This document shows, in pieces, positions 2,490 to 33,628 of a stretch of 34,222 nt of DNA. Numbering within the stretch: position 1 is the first letter of the stretch; every line of letters begins with the position of its first letter. A program made the position numbers and the translations under genes. The notes under the pieces were generated by a model. That model did not search any database. It had not been told where the DNA came from and saw only the letters and a list, made by a program, of their open reading frames with translations. The stretch comes from an uncultured Candidatus Saccharibacteria bacterium (GTDB lineage: Bacteria; Patescibacteriota; Saccharimonadia; Saccharimonadales; SZUA-47), in assembly GCA_964451085.1 (NCBI GenBank), contig CAYVHE010000003.1:1-34222 (forward strand), given 5' to 3'.

Positions 2490-4834
2490 CGCCAATTCCT
2501 AACCTCTTCCATATCTATACCGTGACGCTGAATGTAATTTCTGTGCTCGATTAGTTTCTTCTGCATGTCTTCTTTAAGCTTTTGTCCTTCGTCGCCTAGG
2601 TTTGGCACCCTATGCACCACGTCCATAACAAGATCAAATCTATCCAAGCGGTTAAGTACAGTCATATCAAAAGCTGTAGTTATTGTGCCTTCTTCTACGT
2701 AACCTCGGACGTGTAGTTGCTGATTGCGCCTCTTGTAGGTCAATCTATGAATTAGCCAAGGGTAACCATGGAAGGCAAAAATTATCGGTTTGTCTTTAGT
2801 GAACAAATCGTCATATTCGTTTTCACTTAAGCCATGGGGATGATCGTCATCATCTTGTAGCCGCATTAAATCAACGACATTTATGTAACGAATTTTCAGA
2901 TTTGGTAATCTTTCCCGCAGAATAGAAACTGCGGCTAAGGTCTCAAGTGCAGGCACATCGCCAGCGCTAGCAATTACTACATCTGGCTCTCCCTCGCCGT
3001 CATTAGAGGCCCAGTTCCACTTCCCTACCCCTGCCGCGCTATGAGTGATAGCATCTTCCATATTCAGCCACTGTAAACTATCGTGTTTGTCACAAATAAT
3101 TAGGTTTATGTAATTTCTGCTACGCAGGGCATGGTCAGTCACTGACAAAAGAGTGTTGGCGTCAGGCGGCAAATAAACCCGGGCTGTCTTGGCTTTTTTA
3201 TTAACTAGGTGGTCAATAAATCCTGGGTCTTGGTGTGTAAACCCGTTATGGTCTTGGCGCCAAACGTGAGAAGTCAATAAGTAATTTAGTGAGGCAATTT
3301 CATCTCTCCAAGGAAGTTCGGAAGACATTTTTAGCCATTTAGCGTGCTGATTTACCATAGAATCAATAATGCGAATAAAAGCTTCATAGCTATGGAATAA
3401 CCCATGCCTACCTGTTAGTAGATAACCCTCAAACCAACCCTCTACTTGGTGTTCACTTAGCATAGAATCTAGAACCATTCCCTCTGGGCTCAAAAATTCA
3501 TCAGCTTCAGCTGTGCGCGCATTCCATTGTCGGTTTGTGACTTCAAAAACGGAGTCAAACTTGTTAGAAACTGTCTCATCGGGGCTAAAGATACGGAAAT
3601 TTCGATGTTTGTAGTTAAGTTTGGTAATGTCGCGCAAGAATTCTCCTGAAACGTGTGTATTGCTAACTATAGCTCCTCCGGGCTGTGGAATATCTACGGC
3701 ATACTCACGAAAATCTGGCATGTGCAGCTCTCTTATTAAGCTACCACCATTGGCATGCTTATTGTCCCCCATACGTTTACCATGTCTGGGGATAAGTTCC
3801 AAGAGTTCTGGTATAAGCTTACCGCTAGAATCAAACAATTCTTCCGGTCTGTAGCTTTTCATCCAATCTTCAAGTAATTTAATATTTTCAAGATGTTCAT
3901 CGTCGACAGGGATTGGCACCTGATGAGAACGGAAATTTCCTTCTATTTTTTTGCCATCAACAAATTTTGGACCAGTCCAACCTTTTGGACTTGTTAAGAT
4001 AATCATTGGCCAACGTGGTCTTGATGCGTCATTATTTTCTCGAGCATTTGACTGTATTCTCCTGATATCTTCAATTGCTCTATCCATTTGAGCAGCCATT
4101 AAGCGGTGCATCGCCATTGGGTCGTCGCCTTCAACAAATAACGGCGTATAGCCATAGCCTTTGAATAATTGTTCTAGTTCTTCTCGTTCAATTCTTGCAA
4201 GTACTGTAGGGTTACTGATTTTATATCCATTTAAGTGTAGGATCGGCAAAACAGCACCGTCTGTAATTGGATTTATAAATTTGTTGGAGTGCCAAGCTGT
4301 TGCCAGTGGTCCTGTTTCGGCCTCACCATCACCAACAACACATGCAACTAGTAGATCGGGGTTATCAAACACAGCACCAAATGCATGACTGAGAGAATAC
4401 CCTAACTCTCCACCTTCATGCATAGACCCGGGTATGTGCGGCGAAACGTGGCTGGGTAGCCCACCAGGATAAGAAAATATCTTAAATAATTTCTGTAATC
4501 CAGTTTCGTCCTGAGTTATTTCGGGGTAATGGTCAGTAAACGACCCTTCTAAATAAGTGTTACCAACTAGCGCAGGTCCGCCGTGTCCTGGGCCTGATAT
4601 ATATAAGGTGTTGGTGTCGTATTTCTTGATAATCCTGTTTAGGTGGACATATATAAAGTTCTGCCCTGGTGTTGTGCCCCAGTGCCCTAACAAGACATTC
4701 TTGATATGCGCGCGGCTTAAGGGCTCTTTTAGCAGCGGGTTATCACGAAGATATATTTGACCTACTGAAACATAATTGGCAGCCCGCCAGTATGCATCAA
4801 TATTTTTTAACATGTCATCCGATAAGGAATCCAT
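2471..4834 (-). CDS. xfp: Phosphoketolase (xylulose-5-P/fructose-6-P)
   Basis: 787 aa; [24 protein letters not shown], ThDP motif [34 protein letters not shown]. Confidence 0.97.
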
Positions 4835-30865: not shown

Positions 30866-31453
30866 CTATTCTTTCCATGGAATCGGAGGGAATTGCTGCT
30901 CAGGAATGTTGCTGTAGGATTCCACAATCTGTTGTGAGAGAAGTTCTACAGTTAGATCGCTCTTTTCATTGGCCATAGAGAGCATGCTTAATGTATCAAT
31001 GTAATCTTCAACAAACTCGTCTACTATTCTTGGTTTTCGTGAGTACTCTAATGTTACGACTTTATTGCCAATAAATCCGACCGTAAAACCAGTAGCTTCG
31101 TTAAGCAATTCTCGATGGTCTCCTAAGGGCACCCCTGCACTGGATCCAATAAATGCAACAATAGCACCTATACCAATTGATTTTGCTATGTTTATCTTAT
31201 TTCTTCTGTTATTTCTTATACTTTCTTCTACTATCAATATAGCTAACTTCTTTACTCTCTCTTCGGCTGGTAGGGGGGTTCCACCGTCAATAGCATTCCA
31301 TTTCGCGTATAGCTGGTTAGTCTGTTCATAGGTATCATCAATCCTGGAAACATTCTCGAATCCAAACATACTGTACGGAGTTCTATTCCCAATTCTATAC
31401 ATTGAGCTAGCGATTTGTGCTTTCACAGCTTTATTTATGCGCTTTTTCACCAT
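30866..31453 (-). CDS. Hypothetical membrane protein
   Basis: 195 aa; two Gly-rich hydrophobic segments; TGnTATAAT immediately upstream. Confidence 0.65.
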   Translation of the reverse strand: MVKKRINKAVKAQIASSMYRIGNRTPYSMFGFENVSRIDDTYEQTNQLYAKWNAIDGGTPLPAEERVKKLAILIVEESIRNNRRNKINIAKSIGIGAIVAFIGSSAGVPLGDHRELLNEATGFTVGFIGNKVVTLEYSRKPRIVDEFVEDYIDTLSMLSMANEKSDLTVELLSQQIVESYSNIPEQQFPPIPWKE

Positions 31454-31536
31454 AACATTATAACATAATACTCGGATTTAGCAATATCCCACTGCATTCC
31501 TTGTATTACTACTAAGTTTGCTAGATTAGTATATAG

Positions 31537-31571
31537 AAAAAGTCCGAGCACATATATATCCTGCTCGGACT
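31537..31571 (-). terminator. Intrinsic terminator after rplL
   Basis: 10-bp stem AGTCCGAGCA/TGCTCGGACT followed by a U-tract on the minus strand. Confidence 0.85.
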
Positions 31572-31599
31572 ATAAAGATAGATTATATCTTTTTTAGAA

Positions 31600-31983
31600 T
31601 TAGGCTAGTTCTACTGTTGCGCCTGCTTCTTCTAGCTTCTTTTTTGCGCTCTCGGCGTCTTCTTTTGAAGCTTTTTCTAAGACAGGCTTTGGAGCTCCGT
31701 CAATTATAGCTTTAGATTCACCTAGACCTAAGCCTGTGATTTCTTTTACAGCTTTGATTGCTGCTACTTTTTGTGATCCTGGGTCTTTCAAAATAACATC
31801 AAACTCACTCTTCTCGTCAGCTGCACCTGCTCCTGCATCTCCTGCTGGGCCGGCTACTGCAACTGCTGCTGCAGCTGGTTCGATGTTATATTCGTCTTTT
31901 AATATTGACTGTAGTTCATTTACTTCCAAAACTGTTAGTCCTACTAACTCTTTTGCAAATTTCTTTAAGTCTGTTGCTGCCAT
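31600..31983 (-). CDS. rplL: 50S ribosomal protein L7/L12
   Basis: LTVLEVNEL, Ala-rich hinge, [34 protein letters not shown]. Confidence 0.98.
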
Positions 31984-31995
31984 TGTATTTTCTTA

Positions 31996-32148
31996 CGCTT
32001 CGCTATTCAAGACAAACCTACGGTACTTTTAGCCCAAAAATCTGATTTTCGGGGGCCCCGGTTTTTTCTCGATGTGCCGTGCACGGTCCGCCGGTTGGCG
32101 GAAAATCCGATGCGCGGGCTGCTCTTTTCCATGAGCTACGGGCGAAGC
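31996..32148 (-). ncRNA. Structured cis-element, copy 1, between SD-like AGAAAGG and the rplL AUG
   Basis: Closing stem GCUUCGC/GCGAAGC; internal stems GCUC/GAGC, CCG-C-GCA-U-CGG/CCG-UGC-A-CGG and UCGAGA/UCUUGA; homologous to the rplJ copy. Confidence 0.75.
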
Positions 32149-32244
32149 TTCCTTTCTTGTTGTTAAATAATGTTCTATATCTAGGACTTGATATTCGAGG
32201 GAGCTACTTAAACTACCATTTATCAAGTATCAATTATGCAAGCC

Positions 32245-32766
32245 TTAGCTTGCCTGTGATGCTACTGCGTCTAACAGGCCGTGTAAATTACCTTGCAAAC
32301 CACTCATAACGTTGGAAACAGGTGATTTTAGGGTGTTTATAACAGTTGCTATTAACTCATCTCTACTTGGAAGTTGTGCTAATGCCTTAACATCCTCGGC
32401 AGCCATAAATTTACCATCAGAGCTGTATGCCCCAATAAATTCTAGCTGTGGTTCAGTTTTAGACATCTTATGTACAACTTGAGCTGGTGCGACTTCGTCG
32501 TCACTATTAAACACATACATCAACATACCGTGTAATTCGGCTGTATCACTGTCTTTGTGTGTCTGAGTTGCTTCTAGTGCTTTTTTAACTAAGCGATTTT
32601 TAACTACTTTTATTACAGTGCCATCTTCTTCGGCGTTTCGCCTTAATTCCTGCATTGCCTTAACTGTTGTGCCTTCATATTTAGCGACAACGGTTAATTT
32701 TGAAGTAGAGATTAGTTCGCCTAGTTCCTTAACAAGTTCATTTTTCTTGTCTTTAGTTAGTGCCAT
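32245..32766 (-). CDS. rplJ: 50S ribosomal protein L10
   Basis: MALTKDKK, YEGTTVKAMQELRR, KVVKNRL, LAQLPSRDELIA; upstream of rplL. Confidence 0.97.
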   Translation of the reverse strand: MALTKDKKNELVKELGELISTSKLTVVAKYEGTTVKAMQELRRNAEEDGTVIKVVKNRLVKKALEATQTHKDSDTAELHGMLMYVFNSDDEVAPAQVVHKMSKTEPQLEFIGAYSSDGKFMAAEDVKALAQLPSRDELIATVINTLKSPVSNVMSGLQGNLHGLLDAVASQAS

Positions 32767-32769
32767 TTT

Positions 32770-32879
32770 CCGCTTCGCTACTCAAGACAAAACCTAAGGT
32801 TTTTTCTCGACGTGCCGGGCGCGGAATAAATCCGACGCGCGGACTGCTCTTTTTCCCTTGGGCTTCAGAGCTGTAGCGG
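32770..32879 (-). ncRNA. Structured cis-element, copy 2, between SD-like AGAAAGG and the rplJ AUG
   Basis: Closing stem CGCUAC/GUAGCG (or CCGCU/AGCGG); internal stems GCUCU/AGAGC, CCG-C-GCG-U-CGG/CCG-CGC-C-CGG and UCGAGA..AAAACC/GGUUUU..UCUUGA. Confidence 0.75.
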
Positions 32880-32946
32880 CCTTTCTAATTTAATTATTTA
32901 TTACAATTTCAAATCGACCGTATTGAATTGCTTGTTACCGAGAATC

Positions 32947-32970
32947 AAAAAACGTCCTCTTTCGAAGACG
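32947..32970 (-). terminator. Attenuator terminator of the L10 leader
   Basis: CGUCUUC-GAAA-GAGGACG-UUUUUU between the L10-leader core and rplJ. Confidence 0.8.
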
Positions 32971-33010
32971 CATTAAAATGCTCGCAAACAATAAGATTTC
33001 TCTTAAATTG

Positions 33011-33057
33011 CCTCGGTGACACTATTAAGCAATTTTACTTGCAGTCACTGTCTTCGG
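33011..33057 (-). promoter_or_regulatory. Ribosomal protein L10 leader (autogenous control)
   Basis: CCGAAGACAG-UGAC...UUAA...GUCA-CCGAGG matches the AGACAG...UAA...CCGAGG kink-turn core of L10 leaders; located upstream of rplJL. Confidence 0.85.
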
Positions 33058-33068
33058 TAACAATTCAA

Positions 33069-33098
33069 ATTATAGCATAAAATAAGTCTAAAAATCAA
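33069..33098 (-). promoter_or_regulatory. Sigma70 promoter of rplJL
   Basis: TTGATT, 18 bp, TATAAT with TGn extension, just 5' of the L10 leader. Confidence 0.75.
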
Positions 33099-33112
33099 AG
33101 GCTATTAATTGT

Positions 33113-33628
33113 CTAATCGGTATTATTTGATTCTTGGAGTGCACAACATCCAACAATGCTATATCGGCTATCTCCGGAAATAAAATACAAACTACGTTCT
33201 CCTCCGTATATTTCTAGCGGAGACTCAGTTAGTGGCGGATAAAATTTTGCAGTTATACTATCGTCGATCTTGCAGGCCAAAACTCCAATAACGGGTATAT
33301 GCTCTCCATAAATACCTTGAAAATCTAATATTTCTTCTTGACTCTCGTCGCCCAGCACATAATTAACAGCAAAATCAGTCCATTTTCCTACATCTAATTC
33401 TAACTGATATTCCATCTCGGTTATTACAGGTTTATCCGGATGTATAATAGTAAATCTATTGTTGCCTTCCGTAGCTCTTCTAATACACCCTTCTGGAATC
33501 TCACCCAAGAAACTACTCCAAGAACCATCATACCCAGTGGCTCTCAGAATTTTACTTGGCTCACCGGTTATTTCATATCCTCTTTGTTTGATTACCCTTA
33601 AAGCACCAATTATTTCTCCGCTTGCCAT
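33113..33628 (-). CDS. Hypothetical protein
   Basis: 171 aa; strong AAGGAG SD; no recognised motif. Confidence 0.7.
   Translation of the reverse strand: MASGEIIGALRVIKQRGYEITGEPSKILRATGYDGSWSSFLGEIPEGCIRRATEGNNRFTIIHPDKPVITEMEYQLELDVGKWTDFAVNYVLGDESQEEILDFQGIYGEHIPVIGVLACKIDDSITAKFYPPLTESPLEIYGGERSLYFISGDSRYSIVGCCALQESNNTD

Follow-up and report, generated by a model that had tools for sequence, protein, structure and literature searches.

Phage T4 genes 38 and 25 have split ribosome-binding sites that are bridged by a hairpin, and interspersed structured intergenic repeats are known as REP/BIME, ERIC, Correia/NEMIS, MIRU and RPE. In Ca. Saccharibacteria, 64 of 66 rRNA insertions were found to be short and without introns or endonuclease genes, and processing of the intervening sequence (IVS) type was suggested for the short insertions (PMC11270868); the part of that paper accessible to us contains no link between rRNA insertions and mRNA leaders.

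The window analysed here, a 34,222-nt stretch of DNA from an uncultured Candidatus Saccharibacteria bacterium, holds an insert between rplJ and rplL that resembles each of these systems in part. As in T4 genes 38 and 25, a linearly distant Shine-Dalgarno (SD) sequence would be brought near the AUG by folded intervening RNA, and at rplL we found both the remote SD (167 nt) and a stable, closed intervening fold (7-bp closing stem P1; z -2.46). In T4, however, the bridge is a single short hairpin, whereas here it is a conserved domain of 105-180 nt present at many genes order-wide, and it leaves a long spacing (15 nt at rplL, median 12 nt). With 23S IVSs and the Ca. Saccharibacteria rRNA insertions, as described in the accessible part of PMC11270868, the element shares a length of ~100-150 nt and the lack of an ORF; it also resembles 23S IVSs in forming a closed stem-loop domain at rRNA hairpin tips, in its sporadic occurrence among related genomes and in the availability of RNase III. 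It differs from them in that most copies lie outside rRNA (in spacers, before a tRNA, or between the SD and the AUG of mRNA leaders), and in a strongly conserved, multi-helix fold where an IVS is a simple stem. Like REP/BIME, ERIC, Correia/NEMIS, MIRU and RPE, the element is multi-copy, intergenic, co-transcribed with its neighbours, variable in occupancy and in some cases flanked by duplications, but its copy number is low (1-21), compensatory change conserves its internal structure and not just its termini, it is placed precisely relative to start codons and RNA 5' ends, and no partner transposase was found. Finally, as a structured 5'UTR element before ribosomal-protein genes it recalls ribosomal-protein leaders and riboswitches such as RF00557, yet the true L10 leader is present separately, and the element matches no Rfam family and is tied to no one gene or pathway.

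The rplL upstream region and a second copy at rplJ

The gene for L7/L12 (rplL, 31600-31983, minus strand; PF00542 and PF16320, with Pfam scores of 92.9 and 51.6 bits) begins with the AUG at 31981-31983, and the ORF calls place the end of the L10 gene (rplJ, 32245-32766, minus strand; PF00466, 74.1 bits) at 32245, which reproduces the gap of 261 nt given in the original prediction. Also confirmed, on minus-strand reading, was the SD-type AGAAAGG at 32151-32157, 5' of rplL, with its last G 167 nt from the AUG and only AAGA-type sequence near that AUG. The motif, complementary to the CCUUUCU at the 16S rRNA 3' end of relatives, is followed by AA (32149-32150) and by GCUUCGC (32142-32148), the 5' strand of P1, which is both closing stem and terminal inverted repeat. 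The MFE fold recovered the 7-bp stem that had been proposed to close the insert, GCUUCGC pairing with GCGAAGC at 31997-32003 (RNAduplex -12.9 kcal/mol) around an interior of 138 nt. With P1 formed, the unpaired path from SD to AUG is 2+13 = 15 nt, as had been calculated; the 13 nt are an A-rich linker (GUAAGAAAAUACA, 31984-31996), the place of which is taken by ACGAAGGAAATTATCAATG in a relative with an empty site (L063).

Within the insert the fold comprises a P2 hairpin at 32121-32136 (GCUC-AUGGAAAA-GAGC, including the conserved purine segment GGAAAAGAGCAG), P3 at 32076-32119 and P4 at 32007-32072, all on the minus strand, and the 3' strand of P1 can also form a conserved 3' mini-hairpin, GC-GAA-GC (P5). 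The insert as a whole has an MFE of -58.8 kcal/mol (z -2.46), a value that 1 of 200 shuffles reached. Over the first ~90 nt of the rplJ-rplL spacer, by comparison, the fold did not exceed shuffles (z -0.62), and a promoter scan gave no support for an internal rplL promoter (4 promoter-like sites versus 3.3 +/- 2.0 in shuffles). The spacer at 32158-32244 (minus strand) resembles those of the relatives L063 and L061 in an inverted repeat, GAUAYUUGA...UCAARUAUC.

A second element copy with the same layout was found in the window ahead of rplJ (32886-32764, minus strand). The covariance model scored it at 115.9 bits (32772-32886), and its fold is lower than that of any of 200 shuffles (z -3.68). 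Its AGAAAGG lies at 32880-32886, its P1 pairs CGCUAC (32878-32873) with GUAGCG (32781-32776) around P2 (32871-32846), P3 (32844-32812) and P4 (32810-32782), and AAGCGGAAA-AUG follows, with the AUG 9 nt past the closing stem. In alignment the blocks common to the two copies are 89-92% identical, and the rplL copy carries expansions of 13 nt (P3) and 37 nt (P4) at two hairpin tips; the 167 nt at rplL would thus be a single copy of the element that has grown at two hairpin tips. The canonical L10 leader (Rfam RF00557) is separate from the element, at 32937-33075 (minus strand; 60.1 bits against a gathering score of 44), with a terminator-like hairpin at 32952-32971 and a promoter-like site at 33069-33098 in site scans (both minus strand), and the rplJ copy fills the stretch between this leader and the rplJ AUG. 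A cmscan of 31300-33200 against Rfam 15 placed no family, and hence no intron or ribozyme family, on either element copy at E<=10. The single apparent joint, from 32016 to 32796, in contigs from four sequencing runs was rejected as cross-mapping from the paralogous copy, and a 7-million-letter metatranscriptome from the sample of the best DNA match held next to none of the sampled words.

Conserved fold and distribution across Saccharimonadales

Copies in the genome to which the window belongs (0.83 Mb, 98.5% complete) were collected by BLAST and a covariance model built on 11 of them, which gave 18 matches at E<=1e-4. By Pfam, the genes downstream of own-genome copies encode L10, L7/L12, S10, EF-Tu, AlaRS and a Clp ATPase. 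The order AGAAAGG, element, AUG also precedes the genes for EF-Tu, AlaRS and S10 and that for a 65-aa protein without a Pfam match, and at the Clp ATPase gene the element lies directly past a TATAAT box with no SD. The S10 encoded here (contig C5, 130-624) has a Lys/Ala-rich N-terminal extension of ~69 residues, its Pfam S10 match covering residues 70-164. Downstream genes in relatives, named by eye from N-terminal translations, include dnaK, nusA, nusG, ssb, those for S18 and L11, secY, an ftsK-like gene, jag and hrcA. Model matches occur in 48 of 61 Saccharimonadales genomes, 1-21 per matching genome, among them 27 of the 30 further genomes from the same family and 20 of the 30 families represented by one genome each; these tallies take in two unpublished genomes (G008 and G020), whose sequence was not analysed. 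Across an even sample of the phylum, two of seven genomes from the same order matched and none of 143 outside it. Among viral contigs, the 15-nt core found 40 exact matches, none of which the covariance model accepted.

Structure statistics were drawn from 123 matches, 103 of them distinct, from 100 sources. Because the alignment was fitted with the model, it carries a bias favouring the structure, and with that bias the whole structure is 90.7% paired across the 103 copies, compared with 70.6% in shuffles and 38-43% in slid controls. P3 (95.3% paired; 9 of 10 pairs changed on both sides) and P4 (95.7%; 10 of 11) show heavy compensatory change, and their pairs were ranked first by an independent mutual-information scan as well; P2 is weaker, at 76%. 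G-U pairs are common (26 GU against 3 non-pairs at one position), and the fold therefore belongs to the element's own strand. The mini-hairpin P5 in the 3' tail also covaries (GGC/GCC, GCC/GGC, UAC/GUA, CCG/CGG), with core pairs 87.7% and 86.1% paired, and for P1 itself no clean compensatory evidence was found. Since GCGAAGC serves both as P1 3' strand and as P5, the two pairings exclude each other, and P1 may not always form.

Conserved sequence includes GG-A(n)-GAGCAG, in which GAGCAG is invariant in all 11 aligned own-genome copies, the GAUUUAUUC loop, an A.G mismatch in P4, the AUAGCGAAGCG tail and a GUAG motif kept 5' of the hairpins. Length changes in the A-run of GG-A(n)-GAGCAG go along with length changes in the A/U tract of P4: in 49 of the 60 copies parsed, and across four length classes, the A-run of P4 is n+1 long (a relation also seen as n+1 / n-1). 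The purine segment mirrors the P4 purine strand (alignment columns 52-64 versus 153-163/217-227). Base-specific tracking between the segment and P4 pairs, at 66 of 126, was not above register-shifted controls (37-79 of 126). The length co-variation could reflect a tertiary contact, a triple-strand arrangement or subfamily history. In a recurrent variant, the element has its own P3 tip replaced and is preceded by a separate hairpin that matches the usual P3 tip exactly (CCGUCGGAUUUAUUCCGCGG) and has UAAG behind it, which looks like a rearranged or permuted subfamily (own contigs C2 4124-4222 and C12 6436-6538; L027 2463-2564; G007 contigs C18 and C23).

Placement at start codons, rRNA and tRNA, and site occupancy

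In 58 of the 103 copies a start codon follows P4 within 50 nt in the sense orientation, and 25 of these have an SD 0-5 nt ahead of a P1 of 6-12 bp, the SD being AGAAAGG in 19. Across the 25 copies the linear SD-to-AUG distance is 104-167 nt, while the unpaired path is 3-16 nt (median 12; 8-14 nt in 21 copies), with the 15 nt at rplL at the long end, and 23 of them have no SD-like motif near the AUG. Taken together, the second copy at rplJ and the 25 copies of shared geometry place the arrangement of SD, closing stem and AUG beyond chance. At ordinary long-ORF starts of the same genome, AGAAAGG occurs 10 times within 40 nt upstream and always 7-11 nt from the ATG, and the 16S rRNA of two relatives ends in ...CCUCCUUUCUA (a motif search found no 16S in the genome's own assembly); AGAAAGG is therefore a genuine SD type here. 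The folded spacing, at rplL (15 nt) and overall (median 12 nt), is to be compared with those 7-11 nt with the width of the helix end not included. This spacing falls at the long limit of what is usual or exceeds it, so that use of the distant AGAAAGG for initiation by bridging is no more than plausible. The remaining 33 sense copies include 14 with an SD beside the AUG and 14 with none anywhere, so element-bearing leaders may also initiate without an SD. By eye, several of the sense copies that lack an SD start right past an extended -10 box.

Also found were copies at structural RNA genes. On own contig C52, two copies stand back to back in opposite orientation (3138-3250, minus; 3245-3358, plus), and one of them ends 3-4 nt before tRNA-Asn (c[3067,3141]) on the same strand, past a CAC-AAA-GUG mini-hairpin. 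In L143 (G015, 1501-1613) and L170 (G009, 1501-1607) a copy in the 16S-23S spacer adjoins the 23S 5' end. A comparison of 23S 5' loci from 21 published genomes, found with a DNA probe, revealed an adjoining copy in G047 as well, and copies ~50 nt upstream in G014 and G029; a search for the LSU family in five MAGs gave no match. In G047 and G054 a copy lies inside the 23S gene itself, at hairpin tips in domain I, as insertions of 147 and 141 nt at LSU-model positions about 416-428 and 283-289, which we take not to be classical IVS helices, another difference from 23S IVSs. The copies of these 23S regions are at 784-895 and 1443-1560 in L309 (G047) and at 1840-1932 in L313 (G054); the internal ones are bounded by AUGAGAC...GUCUCAU and have closed folds of -58.2 and -37.2 kcal/mol. 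Location within 23S at a hairpin is thus seen in these two genomes and not in the rplL copy, and termini that pair into a closed domain are seen in the rRNA copies and, as GCUUCGC/GCGAAGC, at rplL. The same 23S regions of G047 and G054 contain further expansions of 44, 75 and about 70 nt. The own genome has a gene for RNase III (130.5 bits). With family members inside 23S rRNA, IVS-type removal of the element without re-ligation is a live possibility.

Occupancy of any one site is sporadic. The element stands before rplJ in 4 of 80 species-level loci, in the rplJ-rplL spacer in 3 of 80, and before tuf in 4 of 28 loci from published genomes. Empty rplJ-rplL spacers are 15-22 nt long and carry an ordinary SD; empty sites read AAGAAAGGAA-N7-12-start codon. 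In the sister species G001 the rplJ site is empty and the tuf site filled, and within another genus the tuf site is filled in G029 and empty in G002 and G027, with homologous flanks. The empty tuf sites L264 (G002), L268 (G027) and L267 (G006) read GGA(G)AATTTGC..., and the TTTGC core recurs in GCTTTGC, the P1 5' strand of filled sites; this core could be a footprint of element loss or native spacer. Copies did not cluster by downstream gene, with 32 label changes on the tree against 32.8 for shuffled labels, although the tree (40 copies, 77 columns) has too low a signal to show vertical descent. One starred clade, of similarly weak signal, joins three own-genome copies with the rplJ copy of another genus. 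By crude ORF calls, ~24 of the 103 copies oppose the next gene.

Traces of movement were sought around the copies. A 46-nt duplication with 37 identical positions, better than in any of 200 shuffles, brackets one own copy, at the lepA 3' end; in 16 of 17 own copies there is no significant flank repeat (repeats longer than 4 nt considered), and thus no fixed-length target-site duplication, and copies at ribosome-binding sites have no flank repeats. In the consensus, GGAA stands on either side of the element. Terminal inverted repeats are present as the 6-12 bp P1 in 25 of 103 copies and as a 7-nt repeat in two rRNA copies, and are absent from many. Near-identical copies were not found in the own genome, the best pair being 88% identical over 102 nt. 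Neither Y1 transposase (Y1_Tnp; 19 of 48 genomes with the element, 4 of 13 without) nor reverse transcriptase (RVT_1; 9 of 48 and 2 of 13) was associated with the element; in the own genome, with its 18 copies, there was no match to Y1, and TnpB, present in 2 of 61 genomes, showed no association. Weak and partial matches to Y1_Tnp (30-46 bits, profile positions 38-119) were seen in ORFs of 205-230 aa, of which 23 of the 61 genomes, for example G041, G056 and G003, have 1-9 copies; their distribution is unrelated to that of the element. We infer that the element has spread or been exchanged between sites.

An antisense copy on contig C28 (9732-9837, minus strand), between atpG-like and atpD-like ORFs, is flanked by a 16-nt repeat, 15 of 16 positions identical, which by eye contains an SD and an ATG. 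On the atpD mRNA strand the first repeat opens an ORF of ~31 codons that runs through the element and ends in ATGA on the real start, so that, as with MIRUs, a small ORF made by one copy (again by eye) ends on the atpD start. The arrangement looks like translational coupling.

Competing readings of the element

The reading that we prefer, at a probability of roughly 0.5, is that the insert belongs to an as yet undescribed, structured and IVS-like element, whose insertion into ribosome-binding sites is tolerated because the terminal stem loops it out. The element, of about 105-140 nt and specific to the order Saccharimonadales, would fold on its own strand into a self-contained domain made up of P2, the purine-rich segment, a long P3 and P4 and the 3' mini-hairpin, with ends that can pair as P1. 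Copies would persist at places that let a closed RNA domain stick out or be taken away, such as the gap between SD and start codon, the region 5' of 23S rRNA or tRNA, 23S hairpin tips and intergenic spacers, so that the element would behave as a 23S intervening sequence that has spread into mRNA leaders as well. There, with the element looped out by P1, only a short unpaired path would lie between AGAAAGG and the AUG, so that the gene would still be translated, from a split ribosome-binding site. The original prediction of a looped-out insert is in this respect well matched by a discrete, stably folding, P1-closed element whose geometry recurs in 25 copies, but the proposed link to L10:L12 output did not hold up. 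The element is found in the rplJ-rplL spacer in only 3 of 80 species-level loci, and it stands as well before rplJ, tuf, alaS, rpsJ, the Clp ATPase gene, tRNA and 23S, a distribution that contradicts a role specific to L10:L12. A device particular to rplL that raises L12 relative to L10 is accordingly scarcely credible to us: L12 is needed in excess and the insert does lie between the two genes, yet 77 of the 80 loci lack it there, empty spacers have an ordinary SD, and rplJ itself, like many unrelated genes, has the same element ahead of it.

That the element is a dedicated cis-regulatory leader RNA, of riboswitch type or bound by a protein, seems rather unlikely but would account for several features. 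Stabilised by a ligand or protein, its fold would set the SD-AUG distance or recruit the 30S subunit and so coordinate the most highly expressed genes. Such a leader would fit the high conservation of loops and junctions across the order, the sense bias (58 of 103) with its fixed start-codon distance, the covarying structured domain found upstream of sense genes, the switch-like exclusion of P1 by P5, the hint of tertiary structure in the length co-variation of purine segment and P4, and the housekeeping character of the downstream genes, from L10, L7/L12, S10, EF-Tu, AlaRS and the Clp ATPase to those named by eye in relatives. It fits poorly with the sporadic occupancy per gene (4/80, 3/80, 4/28), which varies within a genus and shows no stable association with orthologs, with the ~24 copies that oppose the next gene, with copies before 23S rRNA and tRNA and within 23S, with the absence of clustering by gene and with the lack of a common metabolic theme for a ligand. 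Excision from transcripts, whether by RNase III at the closing stem or the long helices, as in 23S IVSs, or by self-cleavage, would leave short, defined 5' leaders on the mRNA, 23S rRNA or tRNA downstream and make the upstream AGAAAGG irrelevant; we consider this unlikely, even though a 2024 survey, in its accessible part, suggests RNase III-cleaved IVSs for short CPR rRNA insertions (PMC11270868). Members of the family do sit in 23S hairpin tips and directly 5' of mature 23S and tRNA-Asn, positions from which one would expect them to be removed, the functional RNA always begins 3-15 nt past their 3' boundary, the genome has an RNase III gene, and 14 sense copies have no SD at all. Against excision, however, the uniform and perfectly placed AGAAAGG (19 of 25) would be purposeless if severed from its ORF, no Rfam ribozyme or intron matched at E<=10, and P3 and P4, with 10-11 pairs and interruptions, are shorter than canonical RNase III substrates. 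Highly improbable, in our judgement, is a structure that acts as DNA, either through single-stranded hairpins serving an HUH/Y1 enzyme (as in REP/RAYT or IS200/605-type systems) or in some other DNA structure, with the RNA fold incidental. GCGAAGC with GNA-type loops and mirror-repeat purine tracts are better known from DNA, and the element has such a GCGAAGC tail and purine tract, a conserved GUAG motif 5' of its hairpins and copies in both orientations; but Y1 transposase is not associated with it and is absent from the own genome with its 18 copies, G-U pairs are frequent and strand-specific, and orientation is sense-biased at a fixed distance to start codons.

The insertion-element reading does not by itself supply a reason for loops and junctions conserved across an order of genomes of 0.6-1.2 Mb, which suggests a function for the host or for a trans-acting factor. 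Together with the P1/P5 alternative and the housekeeping gene set, these conserved loops keep a regulatory role open. A bolder version, which we offer tentatively and with considerable doubt, is that a self-insulating RNA domain of a class not recognised before, a 'portable IVS', invaded the initiation regions of the most highly expressed genes as well as rRNA throughout the order, where it would either act as a global translational switch, built on the split SD, that depends on fold or factor or be cut out to leave near-leaderless mRNAs. The core of such a domain may be an unusual tertiary element in which a purine strand tracks the P4 helix.

The accessible parts of the literature, including PMC5737381, PMC11665869, PMC10633639, bioRxiv 10.1101/2020.01.29.924993 and PMC11270868, contained no description of the element, and such sequences may already be present in the insertion tables of PMC11270868 and in the cassette Table S4 of PMC10633639. 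Hardly any gene regulation has been characterised in Saccharibacteria, ultrasmall epibionts whose genomes are streamlined, and the element, a conserved folded RNA of 100-180 nt, ties the unexplained short rRNA insertions of this phylum to its mRNA leaders. Genetic tools exist for cultured relatives, according to the accessible part of PMC10633639, and native leaders that carry the element would matter for the design of expression cassettes. No other natural set of split ribosome-binding sites would come near the copies described here in size, and these would be a direct test bed for how bulky a domain between SD and AUG ribosomes tolerate.
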